Origin: a virus
Virus record (IMG/VR): IMGVR_UViG_3300043185_000079
Reading direction: 5' to 3' (one strand)
Length of the DNA: 64,000 nt
The position numbers were made by a program, and so were the translations under genes. Below are positions 676 to 59,135 of the stretch, one piece after another. Under the pieces are notes generated by a model. It saw only the letters and a list, made by a program, of their open reading frames with translations. It was not told where the DNA came from and ran no database searches. Each line of letters starts with the position of its first letter. Position 1 is the stretch's first letter.

Positions 676-701
676 GTACGGGGGCGGGGCCGATCTTACA
701 C
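676..701 (-). promoter_or_regulatory. class II (ECF-like) promoter motif GTGTAAG-N14-CGTAC
   Basis: One of six copies of the same bipartite motif, each just upstream of a gene start. Confidence 0.7.
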
Positions 702-737
702 GTCCGGCCCAGGGGAGGTTCGCGATAACCGCGGGTA

Positions 738-791
738 GTGGCCTAGTTTGACGGTGAGTGGCCTAAGTTGAGCCCGAAGGTGGCCTAGTTT
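738..791. repeat. three phased direct repeats GTGGCCTA(A)GTT
   Basis: Copies start at 738, 758 and 780 (spacing 20 and 22 bp) in a divergent intergenic region. Confidence 0.75.
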
Positions 792-1079
792 CGGGAAGTG
801 CGGGCTCATCTGGCGCAGATCTCGCAACCCTGGCAGACTTGAGCCAACCAAAAAGAACGCCCATCGAGCGCTTGCCGAGTCTCTGGGCAAGTGCGTCCAG
901 AGACCCGATGCCAAAGTCCTTTGTCAACCGTCCCCACCTAGCACTTCGCCAGGACCCATCCTGGAGGGCACCCGCCGATCGCGGGAGGGAAACCTCGCGG
1001 CCGTCCACGGAAAGACGGGCAAGTGCCCAGGCAGCGAACCACACAGGAGATCCGGTCGGGATCCGTGGCGAGGAGTGCG

Positions 1080-1343
1080 ATGCCGGGCGGGACGAAGAAA
1101 TCCGGTACCAAGCAGGCCAAGCGGGTCAAGTCGCACGCGAATGGAAGAGCGACTGACACGCAGCTGGTCATGGCGGGAATCTTCCAGGGACTCACCGTGG
1201 CCCTCAAAGATCGACCCATCTCCGCGCTGCTGGGCATCTTCTCCGATCTCAAGAAGATCGGGATCGACTTCGACAAGTACACGCTCCAGGACTTGGTCGC
1301 TCTCGAGCGGGTCTTCGTTCCTGGGGGAGCCCGGACATCCTGA
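1080..1343 (+). CDS. hypothetical protein
   Basis: GAGGAG RBS before ATG 1080; GC3-biased codons (MPGGTKKSG...). Confidence 0.7.
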   Translation: MPGGTKKSGTKQAKRVKSHANGRATDTQLVMAGIFQGLTVALKDRPISALLGIFSDLKKIGIDFDKYTLQDLVALERVFVPGGARTS

Positions 1344-1344
1344 C

Positions 1345-1950
1345 CTACTCCTGCGGAGCCAGGGGCACTCCCCCTCGCGAGCACGTGAGCTTCATGTAGG
1401 CCACGACATCGCCCTCGTCGGCCTCCAACCCCCACCGCTCCTTTGTTGCCGTCCACCAGTCGAGGTAGGGGCAGCGAGTCGGCTCGTGGGGAGGGAGCCA
1501 CGCCTCCGGGCCTCTCGATCCCTTCGACCTGTTCGGCGTGACGGCTACGGCGCGCAGGTTGGCCGTGTCGTTGTAGAAGGCTCTCTTCTTCGCGGAGTCC
1601 CACGTCCATCCGCCGCTTTCGTGGGCCTCTTCGAGCGCGACGACGTGGTCGATTTCCAGATCGGAGGCGCTGGTGATGGCGAGTCCGGTGTACGGTTCCG
1701 TCCATCGCCCGGAGATGACGCGACACGGCTTGGCCGGATCAGCGAACGTCACTGGGATCTCGCTGTCCCTGATCAGCACCTCGGCCCGCGTGTCCTGGCA
1801 GTCCTTGTCCTCGTCGACCCATCGGCCCCACTCGTCCCGATCGTACGGAGGAATTGTCTCCTCGAGGCATGGTTCGCTGATGATCGCAGGCGTGGCCGCA
1901 GCGGCACAGGCCGACGAGAGGAAGGCTCCGAGGAGGATGCGTCGTCGCAC
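1345..1950 (-). CDS. exported HNH-type endonuclease (DUF1524-like)
   Basis: N-terminal signal-like segment; motifs YDRDEW, C.DTR.EVLIRD, W..PY, IDHVVALEEAHESGG, NL.AV...NRSKG, WLPP. Confidence 0.85.
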   Translation of the reverse strand: MRRRILLGAFLSSACAAAATPAIISEPCLEETIPPYDRDEWGRWVDEDKDCQDTRAEVLIRDSEIPVTFADPAKPCRVISGRWTEPYTGLAITSASDLEIDHVVALEEAHESGGWTWDSAKKRAFYNDTANLRAVAVTPNRSKGSRGPEAWLPPHEPTRCPYLDWWTATKERWGLEADEGDVVAYMKLTCSRGGVPLAPQE

Positions 1951-1980
1951 CTGCTCACGTTACCGTGGTATTGTCGTCCT

Positions 1981-2286: not shown

Positions 2287-2301
2287 CGGGGTAGAACACC
2301 C

Positions 2302-2493
2302 ATGCGGATTTTCTTGCGACGGCCCGAGAGCGTCTGCATGCGAGACCTCGTCCCGCCAAGCGCGAAGATCGGTGACGATCGTCGCAGCCGTGTGCTCCTC
2401 GCCGAGTATTCCAGAGCCTACTTCGAGAGTTGGTCGACGCACTGCCATCGCCTATTCCGCGCCTACATGAGCGGCGAGGATCCGTATGGCTGA
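2302..2493 (+). CDS. small hypothetical protein
   Basis: Short ORF that overlaps the next start; GGTAG motif upstream. Confidence 0.5.
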   Translation: MRIFLRRPESVCMRDLVPPSAKIGDDRRSRVLLAEYSRAYFESWSTHCHRLFRAYMSGEDPYG

Positions 2494-2959: not shown

Positions 2960-3017
2960 CGCAGCTCGGCGAGCGAGCCGAAATTTTGGGTTTGCGAGAA
3001 TGCTTCCATGTCATTAT

Positions 3018-3275: not shown

Positions 3276-4397
3276 ATGAGCCCGCTCGACGCCGTCATCC
3301 TTCGCCTTGCGCGCCACAACAATGATTTCCGCAAGGCACTTCGCGAGGAGATCGCGAAAGCTGGGGCTCGAAACGTTCAGTCCAAGCTGACAAAACCGCA
3401 GGAAAAGATCCTAGCAAAGTACATGGAACAAGGGGGCAGCGCGCAATTTTTCGATGATCTGCCCTCAGCCGTGCAGGCGAGTCTGCGGCGTCTGAAGGAT
3501 CAGGAAACGCTGCACATGGACGCGGACAGATGGTTGTCGGATGCGAGCCTGCGGCGTCGGGCATCCGAGGCGTTTCGTCCCCCCAAGGGAATCGCGGCAG
3601 CAGTTCATGACGGAAAATTGCCTGCTCAAGTTCTGCTGATCTGGAAGTACGTCGCCGAGAAGATGGGAGACCACTTCGACTACAGCGGTGCCGTGTCCTA
3701 CTGGAGGGCGAAGTGCAAGAAGGAGGGGATCGACCTGCCCCCCGAGTTCATCACGGGCCTCGGGGGCAAGGGCGTCACGGCGAACTTCCCCCACAAGACC
3801 GGCGAGCAGATCGAAGACTGGGTCCGCGCGAGACTCAAGAGCGAGGGTCTCATCGCCGAGGCGGGCCAGACGGCGGCCGAGATTGGCCTGTCCATCACGA
3901 GCATCGAGCAGAAGATCCGCGAGGCGAAGACCCGCGTCGAGCAGCACATGCGCGGCATCGAGATGGGCGAGAAGGTCACGCAGCGGAAAAAGTGGCTGGC
4001 CAAGGCGCAGGAGGAACTCGTCGCGCTGGAGCGGCAGCTCGAGGAGGCTCGCCGCGGAGTCACCGTCATCGAGGAGGCAGCCCAGCGTCACGAGGACCAC
4101 CACGCGCCCAGCGTATCATTCGAGGAGCAATTCCAGAAGCTGCTCGCGGAGGCGACGAGGGAGATGTCTCAGCAACAAGTGCTGGACAAGGTGCTCCGCT
4201 CGCTCGCCGAGTTCAACGCTGGGCTCAAGGCTGCCGAAAGCTCCGCGCGCGTGGCAGTTCTCGGAGATCTCTGGGGCGTGCTGGAGCGTGTGTGGGACAA
4301 GATCAAGGGTGTTGTGGCCAGCATCGGCCGGTGGGCGAAGGGACTCTTCTCCTCGGCCACGAAGCTCAATGACCTCCTCGACAAGGCCGGGGCTTGA
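3276..4397 (+). CDS. modular coiled-coil protein with N-terminal ILRLA..DFRKAL motif (putative virion-internal protein)
   Basis: 373-aa ORF with strong codon bias; its N-terminal motif is shared with 8826 and 42309. The function is an inference. Confidence 0.6.
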   Translation: MSPLDAVILRLARHNNDFRKALREEIAKAGARNVQSKLTKPQEKILAKYMEQGGSAQFFDDLPSAVQASLRRLKDQETLHMDADRWLSDASLRRRASEAFRPPKGIAAAVHDGKLPAQVLLIWKYVAEKMGDHFDYSGAVSYWRAKCKKEGIDLPPEFITGLGGKGVTANFPHKTGEQIEDWVRARLKSEGLIAEAGQTAAEIGLSITSIEQKIREAKTRVEQHMRGIEMGEKVTQRKKWLAKAQEELVALERQLEEARRGVTVIEEAAQRHEDHHAPSVSFEEQFQKLLAEATREMSQQQVLDKVLRSLAEFNAGLKAAESSARVAVLGDLWGVLERVWDKIKGVVASIGRWAKGLFSSATKLNDLLDKAGA

Positions 4398-4597: not shown

Positions 4598-4684
4598 TGG
4601 TGGATGGGTGCTGCTGGCAAGCACCGGTGGTCTGTAAAACCACCCAGCTTCGCGCTGTCGGGGGTTCGATTCCCTCTCCGCCAA
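4598..4684 (+). tRNA. tRNA-Tyr(GTA), atypical
   Basis: Acceptor TGGTGGA/TCCGCCA, D stem extendable to 6 bp, anticodon arm GTGGT-CTGTAAA-ACCAC, long variable arm, GGGGG-TTCGATT-CCCTC; no encoded CCA. Confidence 0.8.
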
Positions 4685-4688
4685 CCGA

Positions 4689-4771
4689 CGGTCGGTGACC
4701 CGAGCGGCAATGGGGGCGGACTGTAAATCCGCCGCGTTCGCGCTTCGCAGGTTCGAGTCCTGCCCGGCCGA
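4689..4771 (+). tRNA. tRNA-Tyr(GTA)
   Basis: CCC-GAGCGGCAAT-GGG D arm, GCGGA-CTGTAAA-TCCGC, long variable arm, GCAGG-TTCGAGT-CCTGC; acceptor CGGTCGG/CCGGCCG; no encoded CCA. Confidence 0.92.
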
Positions 4772-4814
4772 CGACAAGACGAGGACAGCCCGGAGAGACA
4801 GGTAGAAACGAGAC

Positions 4815-5028: not shown

Positions 5029-5055
5029 GTGTAAGACCAGCGAGGAGCCCCGTAC
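5029..5055 (+). promoter_or_regulatory. class II promoter motif GTGTAAG-N15-CGTAC
   Basis: Same bipartite motif with a 15-nt spacer, directly upstream of the DUF3228-like gene. Confidence 0.6.
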
Positions 5056-5832
5056 ATGCCCACGATGCCCACGGTCGCCGTCAGCCGGTTCGTCCGTCGC
5101 CAGACCCCGGAGTCCAGGTTCGGCCACTTCGCCGGGCCGTGGAGCCGCGTCGTCGATCTCGTGATCGAGAACTTCGACCGGGCGCGTCAGGGCTACCGCG
5201 ACGGGGTGATCCTGGTGCCGGTGCCCCCCGAGGGCTTCTTCACGTCCGTCGTGACCCTGCGGGACGGCGACCATCTCGCCGGGACCTACGAGCCCCGGAT
5301 GCCGGGCGAGGAGCCCCGCAAGAGCACCGTCGTCGTCGGCCGCGGCAAGAGCCCCGCCGTCGGTTGCGAGATCGTGCTCTACCGAGCCGACGTCCTGGCC
5401 GAGAACGACGAGCGCTCGGCCGACGCGGAATGGGAGATCATCAGCGTGAACGCCAACCCGGTTGAGGGCCCCGTGCCCATGGACCCCGGAACGCTCATGG
5501 CCAACCATTTCCAGATCAGCGGCGGCACGGCGACCAACATGGACGACGCCGCGTTCGTCGCCACGCTGCGCGAGTCGTTCCTGTGGTGGAGGGACAAGGC
5601 GTACGTCTACGGGGGACGTGATGGGCAGGCGCGCCACGGACGAGGCGAGTGGGTCGACGTGCCCGTCGATCTTCCCATGCGCGACCCGTCCGTCTCCATC
5701 AGCCTCCGCCTGCCGTACCAGATGCTCGCGATCCTCAAGGAGTACCAGACGATGCTCAAGCAGTGGCTGCACGAGAGGATCATCGTGGAGGCCAGGAAGT
5801 TCAAGGCGTCGCTGGCCAGGAAGGACGGATGA
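5056..5832 (+). CDS. DUF3228-like protein fused to a ribbon-helix-helix antitoxin-like fragment
   Basis: FVRRQ, GYRDGV, YEPR..GE.P, IVLY, WEIISVNA, PMDP.T.M.N..GG motifs; tail SVSISLRLP..ML..LKE.YQTMLKQWL. The true start may be 5065. Confidence 0.65.
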   Translation: MPTMPTVAVSRFVRRQTPESRFGHFAGPWSRVVDLVIENFDRARQGYRDGVILVPVPPEGFFTSVVTLRDGDHLAGTYEPRMPGEEPRKSTVVVGRGKSPAVGCEIVLYRADVLAENDERSADAEWEIISVNANPVEGPVPMDPGTLMANHFQISGGTATNMDDAAFVATLRESFLWWRDKAYVYGGRDGQARHGRGEWVDVPVDLPMRDPSVSISLRLPYQMLAILKEYQTMLKQWLHERIIVEARKFKASLARKDG

Positions 5833-5833
5833 C

Positions 5834-6232
5834 GTGCCCAAGACCCGCAAGCAGGAGATCCGTCGGAAGTTCCGCATGGCGGTGTTCCGCCGCGACGGGT
5901 ACCGATGCGTCGTGTGTGGCTTCCAGTCGAGCCCCGAGCGCGCAGACCACGAGATCGACGCGCACCACATCACTCCTCGCGAGCAGCTTCCAAACGGAGG
6001 CTACGTCGCCGAGAACGGAGCCACCCTGTGCGACGCGGCGAAGCAGAACCTTCCGCTCGTCCGTGGCTGTCACTACAGGGCCGAGCAGGTCCTCCTCCGC
6101 ATCTCGCAGGGGTGGACGCCCGGCGTAGGACCGCCCGAGGACCACGAGTACGAGTACACGCCCGAGGCGCTCTACGCGAGGATCGGGTCGAGCCCGGAGA
6201 GGGCGCGCGCGGTGTCCGAGTACCTGAAGTGA
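5834..6232 (+). CDS. HNH endonuclease
   Basis: VFRRDGYRCVVCG...DAHHI...NGATLC...CH. Confidence 0.85.
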   Translation: MPKTRKQEIRRKFRMAVFRRDGYRCVVCGFQSSPERADHEIDAHHITPREQLPNGGYVAENGATLCDAAKQNLPLVRGCHYRAEQVLLRISQGWTPGVGPPEDHEYEYTPEALYARIGSSPERARAVSEYLK

Positions 6233-6973: not shown

Positions 6974-8431
6974 GTGCTAAACTACCGAAATCTCGTGAAG
7001 AAGTCGCGCCACTTCTATCTCCACCCGGAGACTAACCCAGGGAAGGTCGCTGCCCTGGAAGCCCTCCACGCCGAGTACGTCAAGTACGTTCGCATCTGCG
7101 TGCAGACCATGATCGACAACCAGAGGCTCAATCTCAAGCGGTCCGAGAAGCAGGCCTTCTTCCAGAAGTCTGAAAAGCTCACGAGCCAGATCCAGAAGAA
7201 CGCCCGCGACCACGCCATCCAGATCGTGAGTACTTGGGCCCAGGCCACCTACGAACGCGCCATCAAAAAGCACCTCACCCAACTCCACAGGTTCGGCCAG
7301 GTCTCCCAGGAGGAACGTCATGCCCTCTGCACCGTGGGAAAGCACCTGATCTCCAATCCCTGGAAACATGTCACCCGGGAGGCCATCGACACCTACTGGT
7401 CCCTCCTGCTCGACCCGGAGATCTCTGGCAACCCTCCCAAGGTGTCCGACCGCATCCCCATGCGGATGTCGGAGAACACCTGCATGCTGGCCGACGCCGA
7501 CGAGGCCGTGGTTGCCCCCATGTGGATCAAGATCTCCACGCTGGCTTCCAGGAAAGTCGTTTGGCTCCCACTCAGTGGAAACCCCTACGTCGAAAAGGCC
7601 GACGACGTGAGCAAGGGAGTTCACGCTCGGAAGGACAAGAGGGGACGCTGGAGGTTTGAGGTCGTCGAGCGCAAGGAGTGGGTCGTCCCTGAACCTCAGC
7701 CAGACGCGCCTAAGATCGGAGTAGATGTCGGTTTGAACGTGGTCACGGCTACATCGGACGGCCGGACGTTTGGTAAAGAGTTGAAACCTAAGTTCGACAA
7801 GCTCTACGAGCGAGTCAGGAATCTCCGGGCGAACCGTCAACGTCAAGGATTGAAGGGGAACAGCCCAAGGCTCGACCGTCTTGAAGACAAGCTCACCGGG
7901 ATGGTGAAGACGATCGCCGGAGAGGTGGCCAACAAACTCGTCAAGAGCGCGCCAGAGGGCACGGTGTTCGTGATCGAAGATCTCGACCTTCGTGGGTGTC
8001 GGGGCCAAAAGAGGTTTGCGTACCGGGCCTTGGCCCGGAGTTTGGAGACGAGGGCGCCGGTGATCAGGGTGAACCCGGCGTACACGTCCCAATGCTGTCC
8101 CTCCTGTGGCTACGTCAGCCGGTCCAACAGGAGGGGAACCGATTTCGTCTGCCGTTCATGTGGCAGGCGTTCTCACGCCGACGTGGTGGGAGGGATCAAC
8201 CTGCTGAGACGTTCTCAGGACGAACAGGTTGGTCTTGGAGATCACCATCGAGACGTGAGGGAGTTGCTGCGAGCGCGATTCCGACTTGCCCGTCAGGGCA
8301 TGAGGACCAGTTCCGCAGGACTGAAAACCGCGCCTGTACCGTCAGGCCGGAGGCTTACTACCGGAGCATCGCCGTCATGGCGGGGCCGGCACAGCCTCGA
8401 ATCAGGAACCCAAGTTTTCCCAAGTTCCTGA
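6974..8431 (+). mobile_element. tnpB: IS200/IS605-family TnpB (RNA-guided endonuclease), no adjacent tnpA
   Basis: RuvC-I IGVDVGLN, RuvC-II FVIEDL, VNPAYTSQCCPSCG, FVCRSCG, HAD...INL; lower GC than the flanks; imperfect hairpin at about 6914-6942 resembles a left end. Confidence 0.92.
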
Positions 8432-10994: not shown

Positions 10995-11068
10995 GGGGGT
11001 GTAGGCCAACTGGTAGAGTCGCCCGGCCCAAACCCGGGATGTTGAGGGTTCGAGTCCCTCCGCCCCCA
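10995..11068 (+). tRNA. tRNA-Leu(CAA)-like, short variable arm, C33
   Basis: GGGGGTG/CGCCCCC acceptor, A73, D arm GGC/GTC, CCCGG-CCCAAAC-CCGGG, GAGGG-TTCGAGT-CCCTC. Confidence 0.8.
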
Positions 11069-11071
11069 CCG

Positions 11072-14106: not shown

Positions 14107-15750
14107 TCAGAAGCTCACTTCGACGAGATAGCGAATCCGCTGGCGGTTGACGTTGAAGAGCACGTGCTCGTCATTCTGGACAGACGTGTGTTCTGGATAC
14201 GCGGCGATGCTGTCGTGTCCCGCGGGACAATCGGGGACGCTCCACATGGTAGATTTGGCCATGTAGGGCTTGCCCATGATCGCATCGCACAGGAACATGA
14301 AAGCTCCGCGCCCACGGATGGCACCTGACGATGACGAGTAGAGAGCCTTCGGGGAAGAGACATAGCCAGCACTTTTGCCGCGGTCGGTCGCCGCGTACCA
14401 GCCCGCTCCGAAGGCCGATCCCGTGATGTGCACGCCCTTGAGCGCCTTCGGGAGCCGGAAGTTCGTTTGCATGATCGGAGCAATGTTGACCGAGCGCGTT
14501 CCGTGGATCGCGAGGAACGCGTTCGCATCTCCGTACCAGTCGCCGATGTCCGAAGTGTCGGGGCGACTGCGGGGTTGGAGTCGGGCCTTCTCGAGGCGAT
14601 TTCCCTTGCGGAGGCTTGCAACCTGCCTGATCTCGTTCACGAACAGGTCGTCGACCCGAGGACGCTTGACGGAGAAGATGTTGTGGACCGTCCACCTCTC
14701 GCGCAGGTGTCCGTGGCGATTGTTCGTCATCGACAAGTACGAGTCATAGACCCACTTCCCGAGACCGTTCTTCTGATCGATCCACTCGATCTCGGCGTTG
14801 AGCACTTCGCAGGGGTCCAGCTCGTCGTCCTTCCGCTCCTCGACGTCGAAGTCCTCGTTGCGCAGGGCGGCCTCAAAGGCGTCGAGGTCCTGCTGGATCG
14901 AGAAGATGTTGTTCTGGCTCAGGAGGACCGCGCTGGGATCTCCGTTGCGAGGGATGGGCCGCGGCACGATGGTGGCCACGTAGGTCGAGAGCTGCTGGAG
15001 CCGCTTGTCCTTGAGCTGGGCTTCCTGGTCGGGCCCGATCTTGGCGAGGAGCGTCAACGCGTCCGGGATCAGCTTGTCGCGGACCTCCTCGATGGCCGAC
15101 ATCGTCGGGACGATGCCGGTGCTCTGCTGCGCGGCTCGGGCGTAGTCCTGCGTGCCGCCGACCAGCGCGCGTGCGAGCGCGACGACCTGCGGCTGCGCGT
15201 CCACCCTTTTGCGGGGCGTCGCCTTCTTCTGCGCCTTCTTCTCCGGGGCGCTCGCCTTCTTCGCCACGCCCTCGTCGTCCTTGATGAGGTAGGCGTCGGG
15301 GAGCCCCCGCTCGCGGGTGGCGAGACGCTGGATGACGTAGCCGTCCTTGCCGGCCTTGCCGACCCACAGCGTACTCGACCCGACCTTCTTCTGCTCCAGC
15401 CGCTTGACGTTCTTGTCGCGGCACTGCTTCTGGAAGAAGTCGCGCGCCTCGGCCTCGGTCGAACACTGGACGAACTGGAAGTCCTGGCCTCGGAAGCTGC
15501 CGTTCCAGCTCTTACCTCCGGTCACGCGGCCCCACTCCAGGTACACGAACCACTTGCCGGCCGAGGACACGACGCCGGCGTGGTAGTACTTGTTGTTGTT
15601 CGCGTCACCGAACTGGTTGACGCAGACCATGTCGGCGATCCCGACCTCTGAGCCGAAGTCGTCCTGGTCCTTGGCCGGACGACCCTGGTACTTGAACGAT
15701 GCCGGATCCATTTTCGACGGAACTTCCTTGCGACCGAGCTTCGTGGGCAT
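14107..15750 (-). CDS. WGR-domain PARP-like ADP-ribosyltransferase
   Basis: NNNKYY...EWGRV (WGR); catalytic HGTR, FGAGWY, KSAGY, MFLCDAIMG, GHDS, NDEH...RIRYLVE (H-Y-E triad); AGGAG RBS before ATG 15750. Confidence 0.9.
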   Translation of the reverse strand: MPTKLGRKEVPSKMDPASFKYQGRPAKDQDDFGSEVGIADMVCVNQFGDANNNKYYHAGVVSSAGKWFVYLEWGRVTGGKSWNGSFRGQDFQFVQCSTEAEARDFFQKQCRDKNVKRLEQKKVGSSTLWVGKAGKDGYVIQRLATRERGLPDAYLIKDDEGVAKKASAPEKKAQKKATPRKRVDAQPQVVALARALVGGTQDYARAAQQSTGIVPTMSAIEEVRDKLIPDALTLLAKIGPDQEAQLKDKRLQQLSTYVATIVPRPIPRNGDPSAVLLSQNNIFSIQQDLDAFEAALRNEDFDVEERKDDELDPCEVLNAEIEWIDQKNGLGKWVYDSYLSMTNNRHGHLRERWTVHNIFSVKRPRVDDLFVNEIRQVASLRKGNRLEKARLQPRSRPDTSDIGDWYGDANAFLAIHGTRSVNIAPIMQTNFRLPKALKGVHITGSAFGAGWYAATDRGKSAGYVSSPKALYSSSSGAIRGRGAFMFLCDAIMGKPYMAKSTMWSVPDCPAGHDSIAAYPEHTSVQNDEHVLFNVNRQRIRYLVEVSF

Positions 15751-15767: not shown

Positions 15768-15793
15768 GTACGGGCTGGGCCATCGTTTTACAC
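15768..15793 (-). promoter_or_regulatory. class II promoter motif GTGTAAA-N14-CGTAC
   Basis: 17 nt upstream of the PARP ATG. Confidence 0.7.
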
Positions 15794-31355: not shown

Positions 31356-31421
31356 GTACGACGCGGGCTCAGGTTTTACACTCCCGACGACGGCCGTGTA
31401 AAATGGCCGAAGGAAGCGTAC
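31356..31421. promoter_or_regulatory. back-to-back class II promoter motifs
   Basis: Minus-strand GTGTAAA-N14-CGTAC at 31381-31356 and plus-strand GTGTAAA-N14-CGTAC at 31396-31421. Confidence 0.8.
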
Positions 31422-39356: not shown

Positions 39357-40749
39357 GATCATCGAGCGACCCGTCGTCTCGAGCCCGACGCATGAGGGAC
39401 TTCACGCGCTTGAGCGCGCCGGTGATTCTCTCCGTCTCCTCGATCGGAATGTGGTGTTCCTCGGCGATCTCGTCCACCGTCATCTCCTTGACGTAGCGAT
39501 CGACGAGCACCTGACGGTGCCACTCGACGTCCGCTTCATCACGGATCTCGCTGCACAGGACGCGCGAGATGCAGTCCAGGACGCTTTCCAGGTCCAGGTT
39601 CGCGCTGAGCGTACTCTCTGGGTTGAGACCATCGGTAAGGTACTCGATGGGGTCCGTGTTCGAGTCGTCCTCGCTATGCTCGGTGTGTGTGTACGACAGT
39701 CTTTGCTCTGATTCGTTGATCGTTCGAGGCACGACTTCGTGCGTCCAGTTCGTCGGGTCGTAGCTGGGGATTTCCCGCGGAGTGAGGGCTCCATGGAAAA
39801 CCCGGCATACGGGCTCGCGTCCATCGTTGCGGATCTCGCTGTAGGCTCCTCGACGCGCCCAGGCACAGATCTGGGAGGGCGCGGGACCTCGTCCATCGCG
39901 GACCCGTTCTTTCAGACCGTCTCGCTGGATGATTTTCTCGATCCAGCCCATCGCGTGGTCCTCGATTTTCCCGAGAGTCTCCGAGCGCGGCATCTTGGTC
40001 CGCAGGTGCATCGTCATGCGGCCGTAGATCCGGGAGAAGTGCTCGCCCAGGTAGCGCGCCGTCTCATTGGTGCCGCACGAGAGCACGATGCGTCCCTCGT
40101 ACGTCGGACACAGTGAGCGGGCCTTCTTCACCCCGTTGGCCGTCAGCTCCCACCCGCCCCGCTGAGATCCGCTGCACAGCGGGACGACATCCCCATGGAG
40201 TCCTCGAGTCTGGACATGCCAAGCGGCTTTGACGTCGCGTCGGGCGATGTCATCCGACTGGACCCCGAGAAGGCGAGGCGCGTCGGCGACGATGTGGTCG
40301 GGCCTCACGCTGACGTAAGGCTTGAAGCCCGACATCTTCCCGATGAGGTAGACCACAGGGTCCAGGTAGCGAGTGGCGCCGATTTCGACGGGACTCTCGT
40401 CGCGGAAGTAGCCATCCCACCGAGGGTACTTCTGCTGGACCTCGCGGGCAGCCGCGACCCCGGCCTCCGTCAAGCCCCACAGACCGGGAGCAGGAGCCGA
40501 ACACAGGCCCCACAGGTCCTTCAGCCACCGCCAGGCGAAGTGGACCTCGCGGTAAAGGCCAGGCGGGCTGTTGCCATGGAGCGGCCAGTCGGGGCGTCGA
40601 GGGTCGATCCCGCGCAACGCCAGGGCCTTGTCCCGTATCGCTCTCTGGTGGATCCCCACGTCTGAGCGGAAGTCGCTCGCCGTGCCGAGGAGATAGAGGA
40701 CGGGATCGTAGAAGTCGACGCCGCGTGGGCGTTCGGAGAGGTGCGCCAT
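39346..40749 (-). CDS. sigma-70/ECF-like factor with two N-terminal Mrr-like wHTH domains
   Basis: GLWGLTEAG and GGWELTANG wHTH ends; region-2-like IEDH...WARRGAYSEIR; region-4-like RQVLVDRYVKEMTVDEIAEE. Confidence 0.6.
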   Translation of the reverse strand: MAHLSERPRGVDFYDPVLYLLGTASDFRSDVGIHQRAIRDKALALRGIDPRRPDWPLHGNSPPGLYREVHFAWRWLKDLWGLCSAPAPGLWGLTEAGVAAAREVQQKYPRWDGYFRDESPVEIGATRYLDPVVYLIGKMSGFKPYVSVRPDHIVADAPRLLGVQSDDIARRDVKAAWHVQTRGLHGDVVPLCSGSQRGGWELTANGVKKARSLCPTYEGRIVLSCGTNETARYLGEHFSRIYGRMTMHLRTKMPRSETLGKIEDHAMGWIEKIIQRDGLKERVRDGRGPAPSQICAWARRGAYSEIRNDGREPVCRVFHGALTPREIPSYDPTNWTHEVVPRTINESEQRLSYTHTEHSEDDSNTDPIEYLTDGLNPESTLSANLDLESVLDCISRVLCSEIRDEADVEWHRQVLVDRYVKEMTVDEIAEEHHIPIEETERITGALKRVKSLMRRARDDGSLDDLMS

Positions 40750-41079
40750 GTTGTCCTCGCCTGGGCTCAAGAGCCGCAGCTAAGTGGGGTGCCGGTGTGC
40801 TCGGGTCCTGGACATGTCCTGAGACGGGCAGGTCAGTGGACGGAAGCGCGACCCTTCTACGGCGCGAGGTGTGGCCCTGTCAAGATTTCCGCAGCGATGG
40901 GCGTCAGCAGAACATTGGTGAGAGAAGTCCGTGGCTTGCGGTCCGATAGCTAAACTATTGGTGCCGAGCGGCCGGAAAGATTTTTCCTGTGGATAACTCG
41001 GGAGAGATCTCCCTTTGGTCGGACCGGGGTGCGGCCCCGTCGCTTATGCCTCTATAGGCGAGACTCAGCGGTGACCCCC

Positions 41080-42312
41080 ATGCCCGATTTTGCCGACCCG
41101 CTCGTGCGCCGCTACCTGCGAGCCGCCATCGAGCGGACCGCGCTATGGAACATGGACATGTTCGCGCGGCTGAGCGTGTTGGAGGGCGCGGCTGGTCGCA
41201 CGCCCGGTGAGTGGGTCCGCATGGGTGAGCGCGGGTTCGGGAAGGCGAAGGAGCACTTCGGGCCAGGCCTCGCCGCGGCCTGGTCGACCTCGGGGAACAC
41301 AGGGGTGTACGACGCGGCTGTCTCGTCGGCTGAGAAGACGCTCCGTAACGTGCCCGGGTTGGACGGAGCTGATCTCGTCCAGGAGATGATGGTGGGCTCC
41401 AGCAGCCCACGAGCGCCGAGCAATGGCAACGGCAAGACCGAACTCGTGGGTCCTCGAAGGCAACGGATCTTCTACTCCGTCGGCGAGACCGTCAAGAAGA
41501 TGGAGGGCGATGACAGGCTGCGATCGGGGGTCATCGGGCCCTCTCACCGCCACATCATCGCGGACATCCGACGCTGGGTACAGCGCGCGGCTCTGGATGA
41601 AATCGCGAGATGGAAGCGGCAACGCATCGTTCCGTTCAGCCCAGGGGAACCACAAGGACTGGATCCGCTCAGGACTCGAGGCGAGAGGATGACGGATGAG
41701 CAACGAGAGAACCTCGTGCTGCTCGCCCTCCGGAGTCCAGGGGGTCCCGGACGCATCGTGCAGGATGTCGTGGAGGAGTTGGTCGACCGGCGATTCCCAC
41801 CCGCGCAAGCCAAGATCGTACGGGCGTTCTTGGCGAAGATCGGCCAGGAAAAGCTGCGGTCCTCGGCCGAGATGGGGCGCCTGGTCAAGACTTTCGATCC
41901 GAACAAGTGGTGGACGCAGGCGTTCAACGTCGTTCGTCGCGAGATCATGGAAGAGATGGGCGTCTCGGCACAGCAGCTCACCAACGCGCTCGGAGGAGGA
42001 GCGAAACGCGTCTTCGACTTCATGCAGAAGGACGTGGGGCGCGACCCGAGGATCATCAAGATCGTCGAGAACCTCGGAGAGCAGATTGACCTGCTCGAGC
42101 CCGGGCTCGGCAGCAGGGTTGCTCGTTCGCGGGTGCCGGAGTCTCTCCCGGAGCACCAGCGCCCCGTGTCGCCCTTCTCGTCGTTGAGCAATTGGCTGGA
42201 GAAGGATGAGCACATGGAGTGGGGCACGCAGAGCAGTCCGCTCGCGCAGCCCTCTCGGGGCCCCGTCCCCTTGCGCGTGGCGTCTCGGTGGATTGCCGTT
42301 AAGAATCGTTGA
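41080..42312 (+). CDS. sigma-like protein flanked by LVRRYL..RTA leader and RVASRW tail
   Basis: Region-2-like GADLVQEM...WVQRAALDEIAR; HTH-like REIMEEMGVSAQQLT; GCTT-N6-CTAT upstream. The CDS is secure, the function tentative. Confidence 0.5.
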   Translation: MPDFADPLVRRYLRAAIERTALWNMDMFARLSVLEGAAGRTPGEWVRMGERGFGKAKEHFGPGLAAAWSTSGNTGVYDAAVSSAEKTLRNVPGLDGADLVQEMMVGSSSPRAPSNGNGKTELVGPRRQRIFYSVGETVKKMEGDDRLRSGVIGPSHRHIIADIRRWVQRAALDEIARWKRQRIVPFSPGEPQGLDPLRTRGERMTDEQRENLVLLALRSPGGPGRIVQDVVEELVDRRFPPAQAKIVRAFLAKIGQEKLRSSAEMGRLVKTFDPNKWWTQAFNVVRREIMEEMGVSAQQLTNALGGGAKRVFDFMQKDVGRDPRIIKIVENLGEQIDLLEPGLGSRVARSRVPESLPEHQRPVSPFSSLSNWLEKDEHMEWGTQSSPLAQPSRGPVPLRVASRWIAVKNR

Positions 42313-44968: not shown

Positions 44969-44987
44969 CCATTGGGTAGAAGGACAG

Positions 44988-46706: not shown

Positions 46707-49700
46707 ATGCTCGATTTTCACACCAATCACGTCGCAGTGCCCAAGGATCCAAAGACCGAAGCTGATCTTCATGACGACGGCGCCGCGATGAAAACGATGA
46801 GGCCATCTCCGAAGACATACAGCTACGACGAAGCGTACGTAGCTGCCCGCGAGGCCTTCGGTGGAGACGACTTGGCGGCAAGCACGTGGGTCACGAAGTA
46901 TGCGTTGCGCGACCTCAATGGTCAGATCATCGAGCGATCTCCCGCCGACATGCACCAGAGATTGGCGAGAGCTTTCGCGGCGATCGAGGCACGTTACCCG
47001 AACTCGATGTCGGAGGACGAGATCTTCGCGCTCCTCGCGGACTGGACGGTGGTCCCCCAGGGGTCGCCGATGAGCGGGGTCGGGAATCCGTACAAGTTCC
47101 AGAGCGTCTCAAACTGCTTCGTCGTCCCCTCTCCCGAGGATTCCTACGGAGGCATCCTCCTCGTTGATCAGCTCCAGGCGCAGATCATGAAGAGGCGCGG
47201 GGGTGTCGGCTTCGACGTGTCGACGATCCGCCCGAAGGGCTTGCCCACTGCCAACGCCGCGCACACCACCGACGGTATCGGGATCTTCATGGAGAGATTC
47301 TCCAGGACATGCCGCGAGGTCGCCCAGGGAGGACGGCGTGGCGCCCTGATGCTCACGTGCGACGTGCACCATCCCGAGATCCTCACGTTCATCCGAATCA
47401 AGAACGATCTGACCAGATGCAAGGCGTGTGGCCACGGCGAGCGCATGAAGGTCACCGGAGCGAACGTCAGCGTCCGCCTCACCGACGAGTTCCTCAATGC
47501 AGTCGAGCGTGGCGAGAAGTATCAGCAGCGCTGGCCCGTGGACCGTTCTGATGTTCCTTCCATCGAGAACTGGGTCGACGCCAGGGCGATCTGGGAGGAG
47601 ATCACGCAGAATGCCCGGGACAGCGCCGAGCCCGGCCTGCTGTTCTGGGACAACATTCTGCGCGAGAGCCCAGCGGACTGCTACGCGGACGTCGGCTACC
47701 AGACCACGAGCACGAACCCGTGTTCCGAGATTCCTCTCTCCCCGTGGGACTCGTGCCGGCTGATGGCGATCAATCTCTCCAATTTCGTGTCCGATCCGTT
47801 CACGGACAACGCCGACTTCGATTGGCGCAGGCTGTCTGAAGTCGCCAAGAGGGCGCAGCGGCTGATGGACGATCTCGTTGACATCGAGATCGAGCACGTC
47901 GATCGGATCCTGGCGAAGATCGACAGGGACCACGAATCTGAGGATGTCAAGCGTGTCGAGAGAGATCTCTGGGAGCGTATCCGTGAGACCGGAGTGAACG
48001 GTCGGCGGACCGGGCTCGGCGTGACGGCCGTGGGCGACACCGTCGCCATGATGGGCATGAAATACGGCAGCGACCAGTCGATTGACTTCGTCGAGCGCAT
48101 GTACCGGGCGCTGGCCGTCGCCGCCTACGAGGCGTCGGTGGACATGGCCAGCGAGCGGGGATGTTTCCCGGCCTACGCCTTCCGCAAGGAGGCTGGACAC
48201 CCTTTCATCGAGCGCATCCTGGACGCCGCGCCGCCCGAGCTGAGGGTGAAGTACGAGCGTCATGGCCGACGTAACATCTCGTGTCTCACGACAGCCCCGA
48301 CGGGCAGTGTCAGCATCCTGACCCAGACATCATCTGGGATCGAGCCGGTGTTCCGCGCCATGTACACGCGTCGGAAAAAGATCAACCCCAGCGACGAGGG
48401 AACGCGCGTGGATGATGTCGATGCCCACGGCGACAGATGGCAGCATTTCACCGTGAAGGAACACGGGTTCAAGCGTTGGCAGGACGTCACGGGGAAGACC
48501 GACGAGGACTTCGCAGAGAGTCCGTACGCAGGAGCACAGGCCGAGGAGATCGATTGGCTGCAGCGGGTGAGGCTCCAGGCAGCGGCCGGTCGATGGATCG
48601 ATCACGCCATCAGCTCGTGTCTGGTTGCAGGCGAGAGTTTGGTGTGGACCGACAAAGGACTCCTCGATATCGAGGAGCTGGCCGGACACGCGGAACGGGG
48701 ACAGTTCGCGCCCGTCGACATGCAGGTTTCGTCCATTAACGCCGCCGGGACCCCGGCGCAGATCTCTCAGGGTTTCAACAACGGCCTCGCCAGGGTGTTG
48801 AGGATCTCATTCCCGAACGGGTTTGAGATTTCCTGTACCCCCAACCACAAGCTCGTGGTTCTGGACGAGAATTACACGCAGGTCTGGAAGGAAGCTGCGA
48901 GTCTCCGGCCGGGAGACGTCGTGGTGGGCCGCAAGGGAATCAATCTGTGGAATGATGGCAGCAAGTGCCTGACTCGACTCGTCGGCACGCCCTTCCAGTA
49001 CGAGCACAGGACCAACGCGAAGGATGTCCGCATCCCGAAGGACATGACACCCGCGCTGGCGAGGCTTCTCGGGTACATGTGCAGTGACGGGTTCTGGTCC
49101 GAGAACTCGATTGGCTTGTCGCAGCAGCGCAACGATGCTGCGGAGGACTTCGCAGGTCTCGTGGGCGACCTGTTCGATCTTGAGGTCTCGGAGAAGAAAG
49201 ACGAGCGTGGCGATAACCTTTTCCAGTACGTCGCCAACTCGCGCGAGGCGGCGGCGTTCATGCAGTGGATCGGAATCCGGCATCACGATGATCTCGTCGT
49301 CCCGCTCGCAATCCGCAGGTCGGGGCGCCAGTGCGTCAAGGAGTTCATCCGCGGCTTGACTATCAATGGATTCGTGTCGAGAGACAGCCTCGGCATCACG
49401 ACCTCTATCTGCCTGCCATTCTTGCGACAAGTGCAGCAGCTCCTGCTGAACCTCGGGATCGAGGCCGGCATCGACCAGTGCGCGGAGGAAGACCTGCGGA
49501 TGCTGCCCGACGGTAAGGAGTACCGCTGCAAGGATGCGTGGGTGCTTCGCATCTCCCACTCGGAGGAGGCCGAACGCTTTGTTCGGCTCGTGGGCTCTGT
49601 GGAGGATAGCGAAGACAAGTTCCACCGGGCCTCGCGCCCCAAGTTCCACCGGGCCTCGCGCCCCAAGCTCTGCGGCGAGGTCCCCGATCACGGTCTGCGG

Positions 49701-50678
49701 GAGCGATTCAGGGACCTACACCTGGGGCACGTCCGGTCGAACCGCCTGTACGAGATCTTCCACTCCCTCACCTGTGCCGACAAGCGTGGGCGGTGGCTCA
49801 ACCGAGAATCGCTTCTGGAGATGGCTGACGTGGGGCTCGATGTGCCGCCGATCCTGCTCGATCCAACGTACGTCTTCCGTCCCATCAAGACAATCGAGGA
49901 CGGGGGGATCCGGCAGACCTTCGATGTCGAGGTCCCCGATGGACATGCCTACGTCGCAAACGGGATCATCTCACACAACACGATCAACCTCCCCAAGGAC
50001 GTGTCCACCGAGGTCGTCCGCGACATCTACACGACGGCGTGGAAGATGGGTGTCAAGGGGATCACCGTCTACCGCGACACAGCCAGGGACGGTGTGCTGA
50101 TCGAGAAGAAGTCGGAGTTCGTGCAGCACAGTGCTCCGAAACGCCCCGAGGTACTCCCGTGCGACATCCACCGCACGCGCGTCAAGATTGTCGAGGACCA
50201 GTACGAGGACTGGATCTTCTTCGTCGGACTGTACGACGGGAAGCCCTTCGAGATTTTCGGCGGGACCACGGAGAACATCGAGCTTCCGCGCAAGGTGGAG
50301 AGGGGCTGGATCGTCAAGAGAGCCTTCAAGACGGGCGGGAAGTACGATCTCTGTTACGGCGAATCCGACGATCCCTTCAAGATCAAGGACATCGTTCGGC
50401 AGTTTGACAACCCGGAGCGAGGCTGGGCGACTCGGATGGTCTCCTTGTCGTTGCGGCACGGGGCTCCGATCCAGTACGTCGTGGAGCAGCTCCAGCGCGA
50501 TCGGGCGTCGGATATGTTCGACTTCGCCAGGACGATGGCCAGGGTCCTCAAGCGCTACATCCCCGACGGATCGACTGCGTCGCACAACCTCTGTGCGAGC
50601 TGTGGCGCCGAGGACAGCCTGCGGTACCAGGAAGGTTGTCTTCTCTGCGTCTCGTGTGGATCGAGCAAGTGCGGATAA
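46707..50678 (+). CDS. nrdJ: class II (B12-dependent) ribonucleotide reductase with intein
   Basis: SNCF, GGVG, QGGRRGALM, EPGLLF, TNPCSEI, APTGSVS, SSGIEP, KGITVYRD, C-terminal Zn ribbon; the start may be 46788. Confidence 0.95.
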   Translation: MLDFHTNHVAVPKDPKTEADLHDDGAAMKTMRPSPKTYSYDEAYVAAREAFGGDDLAASTWVTKYALRDLNGQIIERSPADMHQRLARAFAAIEARYPNSMSEDEIFALLADWTVVPQGSPMSGVGNPYKFQSVSNCFVVPSPEDSYGGILLVDQLQAQIMKRRGGVGFDVSTIRPKGLPTANAAHTTDGIGIFMERFSRTCREVAQGGRRGALMLTCDVHHPEILTFIRIKNDLTRCKACGHGERMKVTGANVSVRLTDEFLNAVERGEKYQQRWPVDRSDVPSIENWVDARAIWEEITQNARDSAEPGLLFWDNILRESPADCYADVGYQTTSTNPCSEIPLSPWDSCRLMAINLSNFVSDPFTDNADFDWRRLSEVAKRAQRLMDDLVDIEIEHVDRILAKIDRDHESEDVKRVERDLWERIRETGVNGRRTGLGVTAVGDTVAMMGMKYGSDQSIDFVERMYRALAVAAYEASVDMASERGCFPAYAFRKEAGHPFIERILDAAPPELRVKYERHGRRNISCLTTAPTGSVSILTQTSSGIEPVFRAMYTRRKKINPSDEGTRVDDVDAHGDRWQHFTVKEHGFKRWQDVTGKTDEDFAESPYAGAQAEEIDWLQRVRLQAAAGRWIDHAISSCLVAGESLVWTDKGLLDIEELAGHAERGQFAPVDMQVSSINAAGTPAQISQGFNNGLARVLRISFPNGFEISCTPNHKLVVLDENYTQVWKEAASLRPGDVVVGRKGINLWNDGSKCLTRLVGTPFQYEHRTNAKDVRIPKDMTPALARLLGYMCSDGFWSENSIGLSQQRNDAAEDFAGLVGDLFDLEVSEKKDERGDNLFQYVANSREAAAFMQWIGIRHHDDLVVPLAIRRSGRQCVKEFIRGLTINGFVSRDSLGITTSICLPFLRQVQQLLLNLGIEAGIDQCAEEDLRMLPDGKEYRCKDAWVLRISHSEEAERFVRLVGSVEDSEDKFHRASRPKFHRASRPKLCGEVPDHGLRERFRDLHLGHVRSNRLYEIFHSLTCADKRGRWLNRESLLEMADVGLDVPPILLDPTYVFRPIKTIEDGGIRQTFDVEVPDGHAYVANGIISHNTINLPKDVSTEVVRDIYTTAWKMGVKGITVYRDTARDGVLIEKKSEFVQHSAPKRPEVLPCDIHRTRVKIVEDQYEDWIFFVGLYDGKPFEIFGGTTENIELPRKVERGWIVKRAFKTGGKYDLCYGESDDPFKIKDIVRQFDNPERGWATRMVSLSLRHGAPIQYVVEQLQRDRASDMFDFARTMARVLKRYIPDGSTASHNLCASCGAEDSLRYQEGCLLCVSCGSSKCG
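48618..49979 (+). mobile_element. intein (454 aa) with LAGLIDADG-type domain in nrdJ
   Basis: AISS|CLVAGES...TPNHKL...LLGYMCSDG...YVANGIISHN|TINLP. Confidence 0.95.
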
Positions 50679-50712
50679 CTCCTCCCATTCTCGCGGGGGG
50701 TAGACTCTACAA

Positions 50713-54997: not shown

Positions 54998-55081
54998 ATC
55001 CTTGATGGCGTGAAGGGGTAAAAGCCTCGACACGGCACGTCTGAACCAGACCCGCCCAGTCACAACCAAAAGGAATCAGAA

Positions 55082-56557: not shown

Positions 56558-56567
56558 ACATACGACC

Positions 56568-57836
56568 ATGGCCAAGAAGACCAAGAAACCCTCGGGGGCC
56601 GAGCCCGCTAAGCCCAAGAAGCCGACCTCGAAGAAGTCCTCCCCGCTCACGCAGGCGTCGGAACTTCTGAAGCAAGCGTTGAAGGGGGACGACTGGAAGG
56701 CCGACCTCGACCCGAAGAATCTGCGGCAGCCCCTTCCCCACCTGTCCAGTGGGTCCTTGGTGATCGATCATCTGATCGGGGGCAAGGCTAACGCTAACGG
56801 CGTCTCGCCGTGTCCCGGGTTCCCTCGCGGGAGAATCCTCAACCTTTACGGTCACGAGGGCTCTGGTAAGACGACGATCGCCCTGCAGTCGTCGGCCGAG
56901 ACGATCAGGGCCGGTGGAACCGTCTGCTACATCGACTGGGAGCACGAGATCGTTCCTGGATACGCTCACGCTCTCGGAGTCCCGATCGGCGACGAGTCGA
57001 AATTCATGCTCTGCCAGCCCGATACGTTGGACGATGGAGTGGCGATCCTGTGGACAATGGCCTCGGCCGGCGTCGACCTCATCGTCCTGGACTCGGTTGG
57101 GGCAGGAGTGCCCAAGGCGTTCTTCGAGAAGTCAATCAAGGAGACCGCGGACCAGGGTCGGGTCGGGATGAATGCTGCCGTGTGGTCGCAGTTTTTGCCC
57201 AAGCTTAAGGCACGGATCAATAAGACCAAGTCGACCGTGATCGGCATCTCGCAGATCCGCGATGCCATCAACACGATGGGCTACGGTGACAAGATCACGG
57301 TCCAAGGAGGCAAGGCGTGGAAGTTTTACTCGGCCGTGCGCCTCCGGCTGCAGAAGGTTGGAACGGAGAAGGCTAGCGACTACTCTTCGCTTGTCAACAA
57401 GGCACAGGACCGTGTCGTGGGGGCTTTGATCAAGGCGAAGCTCGACAAGTGCAAGGTCTCATCTCAGCAGGGCAACGAGGAGAACTTCTACATCAGGTGG
57501 GGCGAGGGTATCGACAACACCCGCTCGTTGATCGAGATCGCGGTCGCCCACAAGATCATCGCCAAGAACGGAGCCCACTTCCGGTGGACAGCTCCCGATG
57601 GGACCGAACAAGCGCGCCAGGGCATGGACAAGCTCCGCCAGATGTTCATCGATAACGCGCTGTGGGCCAAGTTGCTCGAGAAGCAAGTGAAGCCTCACAT
57701 GGCCATGTCGGGTGAATCCAGTGACGATGACGAGGAAGACGATCCGGAGATGTACGATCAGGACGCCTTCACGATCGACGCGGAGATCGGAGAGATTCTC
57801 GGTTCGATCACGGACGGAGGCGAGGGCGAAGGGTAG
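56568..57836 (+). CDS. recA: RecA recombinase
   Basis: SGSL.ID, G.PRGRI, YG.EGSGKTT, YID.EH, IVLDSV, ISQIR, GGKAWKFYSAVR. Confidence 0.97.
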   Translation: MAKKTKKPSGAEPAKPKKPTSKKSSPLTQASELLKQALKGDDWKADLDPKNLRQPLPHLSSGSLVIDHLIGGKANANGVSPCPGFPRGRILNLYGHEGSGKTTIALQSSAETIRAGGTVCYIDWEHEIVPGYAHALGVPIGDESKFMLCQPDTLDDGVAILWTMASAGVDLIVLDSVGAGVPKAFFEKSIKETADQGRVGMNAAVWSQFLPKLKARINKTKSTVIGISQIRDAINTMGYGDKITVQGGKAWKFYSAVRLRLQKVGTEKASDYSSLVNKAQDRVVGALIKAKLDKCKVSSQQGNEENFYIRWGEGIDNTRSLIEIAVAHKIIAKNGAHFRWTAPDGTEQARQGMDKLRQMFIDNALWAKLLEKQVKPHMAMSGESSDDDEEDDPEMYDQDAFTIDAEIGEILGSITDGGEGEG

Positions 57837-57844
57837 GGTCTGTT

Positions 57845-59083
57845 GTGCCCCTGAAGGTCCGCGTCAGAAACTTCCAATCGATCGCCGACGCCGAAATCGA
57901 GATCGACGGTTTCACGGTCGTGACCGGGACGAACAACGCTGGGAAGTCGGCGATGCTCCGTGCGATCCGGGGGGCTTTCACGAATGCCCGGGGCTCGGAC
58001 TTCGTGCGCCTGGGGGCTTCCCACTGCACGGTCGACATCATGTTCGATGACGGCCAGACGCTGCGCTGGGAGAAGGGTGACAAGGGTGTCAACAACTATG
58101 TCATCAACGGGAGGTCCTTCAAGAAGGTTGGCCACGGGGTTCCTCCCGAGGCCCGAGTCTTCGGCGTCGAACCCATCGTCGTGAATGACGTCGAGCTTTG
58201 GCCGCAGATCGCCCCGCAAGTCACCGGCGTCAGTTTCCTCCTCGACCAGCCGGGGGCTGTCATTGCGGAAGCGGTCGCGGACGTCGGCCGGGTCAACCAG
58301 CTCACGCGCGCTCTGAAGTCGTGCGAATCGGACCGTAGGACGGCGCGAGGCGATCTCAAGACTCGCCGGGACGACGCAGGGACTCTCGCGGCGAGGAGGG
58401 AAAAATTCGACGGTCTCGACGCCGCCGTGTCCGTCCTTGATGACCTGACGACGCGCAGAGATCGGGCCGAGCGGACGTCGACCGCAGCTCGCAACCTCAC
58501 CAAGCTGCGCGACCGAATACGCCAAGCCTACGAGGCGGTTGAGCGCCTGCAGGGACTCGACATGGCGGCGGAGGGACTCCCAGACGAGGATCGTGTCGGT
58601 CAGACCGTCGACGCCCAGGGCGCCGTCTCCACGGTCCGGTCGCTCCAGAAGCGACACGCCCAGGCATCGAGGAGTGTGGTCGCCTTGGCCGGGCTGGACG
58701 AGGCCGGAGTCCTGCTCCCCTCCGACGAGAGGGTGACTCACGTCGAGAAGTTTCGGCAGGCCCTTGGGATCACCGTCACGCTCTCCATGAGGCTCGAGGA
58801 GGCACAGAAGGAGCTGAGCCAGGCTCGGGAGGCCGACGCCGTCGTGTCCCGGCTCTCGCTCGACGACGGGCCCGCGGACAAGGCCGACCGCATGAAGAGG
58901 GCGCTGTCGAAGATGCGGGATCTTGCCCGGAGGCTGTCGCAGGTTCGGCAAGAGGTCACGACGCTTGATGCAGAGACCGCGAGGCTGGAGGGAGAGCATG
59001 GCGTGATCGATGCGCGCGCGCGTGAAATCCTTGGATCCTACGAGGAGTGCCCCACATGCGGCAAGATCCTCGGCTCCGCGTGA
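57845..59083 (+). CDS. SbcC/Rad50-like ATPase, N-terminal half only
   Basis: NFQSI, Walker A GTNNAGKS, Q-loop, coiled coil; ends just after the Zn hook CPTCG; no signature motif or Walker B. Confidence 0.85.
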   Translation: MPLKVRVRNFQSIADAEIEIDGFTVVTGTNNAGKSAMLRAIRGAFTNARGSDFVRLGASHCTVDIMFDDGQTLRWEKGDKGVNNYVINGRSFKKVGHGVPPEARVFGVEPIVVNDVELWPQIAPQVTGVSFLLDQPGAVIAEAVADVGRVNQLTRALKSCESDRRTARGDLKTRRDDAGTLAARREKFDGLDAAVSVLDDLTTRRDRAERTSTAARNLTKLRDRIRQAYEAVERLQGLDMAAEGLPDEDRVGQTVDAQGAVSTVRSLQKRHAQASRSVVALAGLDEAGVLLPSDERVTHVEKFRQALGITVTLSMRLEEAQKELSQAREADAVVSRLSLDDGPADKADRMKRALSKMRDLARRLSQVRQEVTTLDAETARLEGEHGVIDARAREILGSYEECPTCGKILGSA

Positions 59084-59109
59084 TTTCCCGGGTCATGGGC
59101 GACCTCGTT

Positions 59110-59135
59110 GTGTAGAAACCTGAACTCTCCCGTAC
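59110..59135 (+). promoter_or_regulatory. class II promoter motif GTGTAGA-N14-CGTAC
   Basis: 9 nt before ATG 59145; no SD sequence. Confidence 0.7.

Follow-up and report, generated by a model that had tools for sequence, protein, structure and literature searches.

The 64-kb window analyzed here (64,000 nt of IMG/VR record IMGVR_UViG_3300043185_000079, from an uncultured huge phage with 63% GC) carries six copies of a two-block element, GTGTARR-N14/15-CGTAC, which is likely to be a sigma-dependent promoter class of this GC-rich huge-phage lineage and not the mark of a dedicated regulon. That degree of confidence applies to the promoter-class reading and not to the choice of sigma. An exact scan returns six sites in the window and none in 100 dinucleotide-preserving shuffles of it, while permitting one mismatch in the N14 form recovers the same five N14 sites and adds nothing (0.15 expected). 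The sites are all-or-none, and a tail of weaker matches is absent. All six are intergenic on a gene map based on codon usage, by which intergenic DNA makes up 16.4% of the window (p ~2e-5), and every site is directed at the adjoining gene, with 47, 0, 17, 14, 8 and 9 nt separating the last C of CGTAC from the start codon at sites 1 to 6, respectively. These results bear out a preliminary description of this DNA in its six coordinates (including the N15 variant at 5029), in the intergenic placement and orientation, and in the start-codon distances (five of 0-17 nt and the first of 47 nt); the names that it gave to the downstream genes agree with Pfam and PHROG matches. The sites and the genes behind them are as follows.

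676-701 (-): predicted promoter site 1, exact GTGTAAG-N14-CGTAC, intergenic, 47 nt before the ATG at 628 and pointing towards gene 2-628(-)
2-628 (-): gene of unknown function from the open reading frame (ORF) list, running past the window start (209 aa seen)
5029-5055 (+): predicted promoter site 2, the N15 spacing variant; CGTAC abuts the ATG at 5056
5056-5832 (+): DUF3228 protein (PF11539, 29.7 bits)
5834-6232 (+): HNH-like gene (HNH PHROG matches)
14107-15750 (-): 547-aa protein with a WGR domain (E 8.5e-4) and a PARP catalytic domain (PF00644, E 1.2e-14)
15768-15793 (-): predicted promoter site 3, 17 nt before the ATG at 15750, with AGGAG within the short leader
30115-31341 (-): MoxR/CobS-like AAA ATPase (AAA_lid_7, E 0.012, under the Pfam cut-off; CobS-like PHROG 249; Walker A)
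31356-31381 (-): predicted promoter site 4, for the AAA operon, 14 nt before the ATG at 31341; kept in seven relatives
31396-31421 (+): predicted promoter site 5, 8 nt before the ATG at 31430; the VWA mRNA is predicted to be leaderless
31430-33820 (+): 796-aa zincin (HEAWH at residue 116) and CobT-like VWA protein (CobT_C and VWA matches; PHROG 1576)
59110-59135 (+): predicted promoter site 6, GTGTAGA-N14-CGTAC, 9 nt before the ATG at 59145; predicted leaderless
59145-61391 (+): 748-aa RlaP-family nucleotidyltransferase fusion (PF10127, E 5.7e-18; PHROG 388)

The strongest evidence for the promoter class comes from spacing and from sister phages. No close relative of the window was found among sequenced phages. 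One of its proteins has an exact match on a contig of 144,733 bases. The best relative at hand, G002 (IMG/VR contig 3300028840_005860; 230 kb, 65.7% GC, estimated to be ~90% complete), is syntenic with the window across 37 proteins at 31-80% amino-acid identity. G004 (IMG/VR 3300043185_000099; a 152-kb fragment, 62% GC, estimated to be ~29% complete) has almost no proteins in common with the window or G002, and G001, which is AT-rich, and G003 are more distant relatives (PARP 52%, AAA 38% identity). When the spacer of TGTAR-Nk-CGTRC is varied over k=8-24, a sharp peak appears at k=15 (window 5 hits, G002 20, G004 3), against 0-3 hits at other spacings. The pattern occurs 22 times in G002 versus once for a reversed-pattern control. 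A position weight matrix finds 25 sites in this genome, 24 of them intergenic and aimed at the next gene (p ~1e-18), with the consensus (G/A)TGTAA(G/A)ATyTTC-N8-CGTGCAGGGG. Eleven of the G002 sites, at 4-25 kb, lie in a plus-strand arm of small genes just after two strong terminators, and the genes behind the arm sites encode a RadC/JAB protein plus many proteins without a known family. A simple consensus scan of this left arm for sigma70-type promoters found none (0.8 expected). The two terminators, at 4200-4385, are intrinsic, have near-identical stems and stand directly before the first promoter of the arm. G004 contains three exact GTGTAAN-N14-CGTAC sites versus 0.04 expected, and its motif fronts an NAD-dependent DNA ligase gene (10 nt before the ATG) and an MBL-fold gene. 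This genome came to light through a scan of viral contigs for GTGTAAAA-N13-CGTACG, which yielded 79 single hits, nearly all of them chance or coding; one (L100) led to G004.

Footprinting was based on a metagenome scan with the AAA alignment, which returned 21 loci and among them seven distinct relatives (L154, L155/157, L156, L159, L162, L163/164 and L165/168; AAA identity 60-79%), the last of which is identical to G002 at the AAA/VWA region. In all seven, the AAA side and the VWA side of the divergent region each keep [T/C]GTAR-N15-CGTRN, while the spacers and flanks vary. The variant of the second block is uniform within each phage, with CGTAC at 6/6 window sites, CGTGC at 18 of the 25 G002 sites and CGTGG on both sides in L155 and L162. 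The motif was not found in relatives at 43-48% AAA identity, nor in G001 or G003, and since these last two genomes give no hits it appears to be confined to a sub-lineage.

The position of the start codon adds a second line of evidence. Over the three genomes with sites (window, G002 and G004), the start of a long ORF falls 7-10 nt downstream at 10 of 31 sites versus 7.6% of random positions (p 6e-5); at the other sites the leader measures 13-90 nt and often contains a Shine-Dalgarno sequence. Were transcription to begin 7-10 nt past the -10-like block, about one in three of these mRNAs would lack a leader. At the VWA gene the start codon lies 6-9 nt past the second block in the window and in each of the seven relatives, implying a leaderless mRNA there, and this apparently conserved leaderless configuration is a useful extra of the finding. 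Site 2 reads CGTAC-ATGCCCACG-ATGCCCACG, with a second in-frame ATG at 5065, 9 nt downstream. Four of the six motif-fronted proteins begin with Met-Pro (MPT for the genes starting at 5056, 15750 and 31341, MPR for that at 31430), which may reflect GC bias or a preference tied to leaderless or short-leader starts.

Taken together, we infer a promoter in which a -35-like (G)TGTAA(R) block and a -10-like (C)CGTAC block, with exactly 15 nt between TGTAR and CGT, would be recognised by host core RNA polymerase in complex with a group-4, two-domain sigma of the extracytoplasmic function (ECF) type. Transcription would begin ~7-10 nt after the second block. The VWA, RlaP and probably DUF3228 mRNAs would then lack a leader; those of PARP and AAA would retain a Shine-Dalgarno sequence within a leader of ~7-10 nt, and the leader of gene 2-628 would be ~40 nt long. 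The class would be a general non-late and probably early one, of which the six window genes are simply members in this phage. Given a common promoter class, co-expression of the six genes is likely, and they very probably share expression timing. The role in early takeover or counter-defence that the preliminary description had proposed is plausible, judged from where the class sits in G002.

Several observations weigh against this reading or parts of it. Early timing rests solely on the gene content of G002. Most relatives have a GGGTATAA-type element upstream of the promoter on the AAA side, so that the AAA operon may be transcribed in two phases and its timing may be mixed. CGTAC runs directly into an ATG at one G004 site as well as at site 2, which would fit the predicted transcription start only through a downstream codon. 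The hallmark AAC of ECF -35 elements is missing at 6/6 window sites (TAAG, TAAG, TAAA, TAAA, TAAA and TAGA), and its C is present at 2/25 G002 sites and at some sites of other relatives. The motif was not found in G003 despite sigma region-4-like hits in that genome, one of them in a 495-aa frame. No copy lies upstream of either sigma-like gene of the window, 39346-40770(-) or 41071-42312(+), and the autoregulation usual for ECF sigmas is thus not seen. Finally, no sigma homologue is detectable in the 29%-complete G004 fragment, though the motif is present there.

Beside the studied class, other short elements stand before gene starts. GGGTAG occurs 8-14 nt before seven gene starts between 26790 and 62000 of the window (for example at 44975-44980, 50698-50703, 57831-57836 and 61860-61865); the genes fronted are 26818-27576(-) and those starting at 35805, 44988, 50713, 57845 and 61876, together with that at 55082, where the element is GGGTAA at 55016, further upstream. 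In G002, four intergenic sites show GGTATAA with an ATG 6-8 nt further on. Together GGGTAG and GGTATAA resemble a second promoter class, of a -10-only type, whose mRNAs would also be leaderless. In G001 (L001 2919-3003) the PARP orthologue lies behind TGGTATAAT, ending 7 nt before the ATG; this is an extended -10 sigma70-type element in leaderless layout, in place of the studied motif.

Two window genes are candidates for the sigma that would read the motif.

39346-40770 (-): candidate phage sigma, 474 aa, with two N-terminal winged-helix domains followed by sigma2-linker-sigma4 (Pfam, AlphaFold 2 model, structural comparison)
41071-42312 (+): second, weaker sigma-like candidate (structural list; conserved C-terminal RVASRWI tag)

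The first matches Sigma70_r4 at 24.6 bits (cut-off 24.1 bits) and has 45 homologues, some of them labelled sigma24 by the Joint Genome Institute (JGI). A profile search also relates it to region 4 of the Rhodobacter sphaeroides ECF sigma SigE (E 0.022). Its AlphaFold 2 model (mean predicted local distance difference test score, pLDDT, 71) aligns in VIA-align with sigma4 of M. tuberculosis SigD (Z 8.5, root-mean-square deviation 1.9 Å over 62 residues), and model residues 234-471 cover 159 of the 174 residues of the ECF sigma SigL. SigH, SigE, SigW and primary sigmas make up the remaining structural matches, and sigma factors dominate its Foldseek list. As the Z values are middling by the scale of the tool, it is the agreement among the hits, together with the Pfam match, that carries the argument. 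As modelled, the protein thus carries sigma2 and sigma4 domains of the sigma-70 family. A full sigma4 domain needs a -35 element, and among the three upstream motif classes only the studied motif has two blocks. The second candidate has no Pfam or PDB sequence match, and sigma factors fill its VIA-align list at weak Z values (<=5). An RVASRWI-type tag occurs in 0/6 motif-fronted proteins. The sequence CGTAG-N14-CGTCC upstream of the 474-aa sigma gene was rejected as a motif copy, being weak and having a spacing of 14 that occurs nowhere else.

In the window, G002 and G004, neither a beta-prime catalytic motif nor a T7-type match was found for a phage RNA polymerase, a weak negative because the T7 family control was also silent. 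It seems that these phages rely on the core enzyme of the host together with a sigma. Provided that the motif is a promoter, the 474-aa phage protein is the leading candidate for its reader, at a little short of an even chance; a host ECF-type sigma is a substantial possibility, and some other factor a small one. The presence of the motif in G004 without a detectable sigma homologue makes the phage-sigma assignment weak, and the occurrence of one motif in phages that are unrelated but alike in GC speaks for a host sigma.

The alternative that survives best is that the promoters are read by a host-encoded ECF-type sigma, for instance one responding to envelope stress at infection, with the phage sigma uninvolved; we regard it as less likely than not. 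G004 shares almost no proteins with the other two genomes and nevertheless has its three exact sites, with no sigma homologue detected; yet only 29% of that genome is at hand. The G002 class sits where early genes are expected, with sigma70-like promoters not found nearby, and the phage sigma genes are free of motif autoregulation. A scan of bacterial genomes for GTGTAAAA-N13-CGTACGGG, however, produced 31 single hits dispersed over unrelated taxa, as by chance, and no host emerged; two Acidobacteriaceae hits proved to be one orthologous locus before an unknown 158-aa ORF. ECF sigmas are moreover normally sequestered, a risky basis for a main promoter class, and the phage has its own sigma2-sigma4 protein needing a two-block promoter.

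The preliminary description had taken the motif to define a dedicated regulon, in which PARP, DUF3228, AAA, VWA and RlaP would form one module of ADP-ribosylation, chaperone and RNA repair. Auxiliary, conflict-type genes do stand behind all six window sites, the motif is kept at DUF3228, AAA and VWA in G002, and PARPs, MoxR-vWA pairs and RlaP recur as accessory genes of jumbo phages (PMC7824862). Against this, most of the ~25 G002 sites precede small unknown genes, RadC/JAB and others, and the unrelated G004 has the motif before its ligase and MBL-fold genes. Of the five G002 orthologues, three keep the motif; that of DUF3228 has CTGTAAA-N14-CGTGT 48 nt before the start, while the PARP orthologue (63% identity) lies behind a GAGTATAA-type element instead and that of RlaP has no equivalent site. 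The motif is thus neither restricted to the linked gene set nor kept throughout it. In addition the six-site count covers 64 kb of a 144.7-kb contig, and six sites therefore undercount the class. These comparisons do not support the functional module, and we regard a dedicated regulon as improbable.

A more specific proposal, to which we give a slim chance, is that the class is the true early one and that its reader enters the cell along with the DNA: the 41071-42312 protein, packaged in the virion and injected as a sigma. Were this so, the injected sigma would redirect the host core polymerase to TGTAA-N15-CGTAC promoters at once. Whole virion RNA polymerases are injected by some phages, and to our knowledge an injected sigma would be new. 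In a second variant, the phages would use a host envelope-stress ECF sigma activated by infection.

Very improbable is the idea that the motif is an operator bound by a phage repressor or activator and not a core promoter. CGTACG is palindromic, with an extension at some sites (GCCCGTACGGGC at site 3), and winged-helix and helix-turn-helix (HTH) proteins are encoded in the window. The motif as a whole is nevertheless asymmetric and strictly directional, with two different blocks at a promoter-like spacing; the palindrome is missing at sites 1, 2 and 6 and in the CGTGC and CGTGG variants; the fixed 7-10 nt to start codons suits a relation to the start site; and most sites lack any other accompanying promoter-like element. 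That the motif acts in RNA, as a 5' leader structure or translational signal, has next to no likelihood, for although it immediately precedes start codons and sites 1, 3 and 4 admit local hairpins, the folding energies are no better than those of shuffles (z -1.5 to +0.6), an Rfam search found tRNAs only and no match to the sites, the spacer is unconserved with no compensatory pattern across relatives, and the divergent back-to-back pair suits promoters at the DNA level.

The genes behind the six sites, and others of the window, have further features. Gene 2-628(-) has no Pfam or PHROG match and no orthologue in G002. The HNH-like gene 5834-6232 is probably co-transcribed with the DUF3228 gene. 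The AAA ATPase gene is the first of a co-directional run reaching ~28368; its AAA_lid_7 match is to the midasin lid, and its Walker A motif, GSTGAGKD, has Asp after Lys where Ser or Thr is usual, with GKD invariant in three aligned orthologues. The RlaP fusion has homologues in mycobacteriophage cluster C and in Pectobacterium phages. A Peptidase_C39-like cysteine protease (37582-38475(+), E 1e-7) lies between the VWA gene and the sigma-like genes. The window also contains three tRNA genes (tandem tRNA-Tyr(GTA) x2 and tRNA-Leu(CAA); 4598-4772 and 10995-11070), the last of which encloses a GTGTAGG at 10999, a TnpB/IS605 OrfB-like protein with a Cas12f1-like TNB domain (6974-8431(+), E 4e-13), and a ribonucleotide reductase large subunit split by an intein with a LAGLIDADG domain (46707-50678(+)).

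Transcriptional annotation of uncultured huge phages is almost nil. An easily scanned, conserved consensus, TGTAR-N15-CGTRN, combined with a predicted leaderless start and a candidate cognate sigma, would allow the genes of this lineage to be sorted into expression classes by sequence alone, and offers compact ECF-like promoter and sigma parts for testing. The motif suggests, for PARP, DUF3228, the AAA/zincin-VWA pair and RlaP, expression alongside small takeover-type genes as opposed to virion genes.

Such expression bears on a published guess about one of these gene sets. Jumbo phages are already known to carry PARPs, RlaP with RNA ligases, and a MoxR-vWA pair with an N-terminal peptidase, for which a review proposed a role in virion assembly, as an assembly chaperone (PMC7824862). 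As in the MoxR AAA+/metallopeptidase-vWA pair of group 2.2 jumbo phages (PMC7824862), the AAA ATPase here adjoins a VWA protein whose N-terminal part has a zincin motif (HEAWH); unlike there, the two genes are divergent and each would have its own promoter of the studied class. A non-late class sits uneasily with the virion-assembly proposal, without disproving it.

Leaderless mRNAs are common in Actinobacteria, in Deinococcus and among some phage repressor genes. The units described here resemble them in having a start codon 7-10 nt past the -10-like block at 10/31 sites, with the VWA case kept in seven relatives, and differ in that the -10 is CGTAC, as opposed to the TANNNT of primary sigmas, and in that their start sites are predictions.

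The likeness to ECF promoters is genuine, though partial. SigW promoters have an N16 spacer, by which measure TGTAAR-N14-CGTA is 2 nt shorter. ECF promoters carry AAC in the -35 and CGT in the -10 element, have spacers of 14-17 nt (the range adopted here) and adhere closely to their consensus, CGTA being selective for SigW and CGAC or CGwC for SigX, with a T-tract beside the -35 block (tGAAACnTTTt) (PMC5758882, Gaballa et al.); the Bacillus SigW/SigX consensus given in the preliminary description agrees with this source. The k=15 peak in the window, G002 and G004 places two short paired blocks at a fixed spacer within that range, the CGT core is present at 6/6 window and 25/25 G002 sites and in all relatives, the consensus is tight, oriented and conserved, and the G002 consensus TGTAAGATyTTC holds a T-tract of the ECF type. 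To this extent the likeness to SigW (TGAAAC...CGTA) and SigX (CGAC/CGwC) promoters of B. subtilis asserted in that description stands. It fails at the -35 block, (G)TGTAA(R), which keeps the AA but is without the conserved C of AAC, and there is no autoregulated sigma/anti-sigma operon bearing the motif. These features support a manner of working like that of ECF promoters, short of proven membership of the family.

A close parallel is with the temporal promoter classes read by phage sigmas, such as the middle and late promoters of Bacillus phage SPO1 and those of group 2 jumbo phages (PMC7824862; PMC13401047). As in these, many intergenic, gene-oriented copies of one phage-specific consensus are kept in related phages, one or more sigma-like proteins are phage-encoded, and a phage RNA polymerase was likewise not found in the window, G002 or G004. 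The class differs from them in its new consensus, in its many apparently leaderless members and in the occurrence of the same motif in the unrelated G004. The result is not a new kind of regulatory system; it is a new consensus for a familiar one, a phage promoter class accompanied by a candidate alternative sigma.

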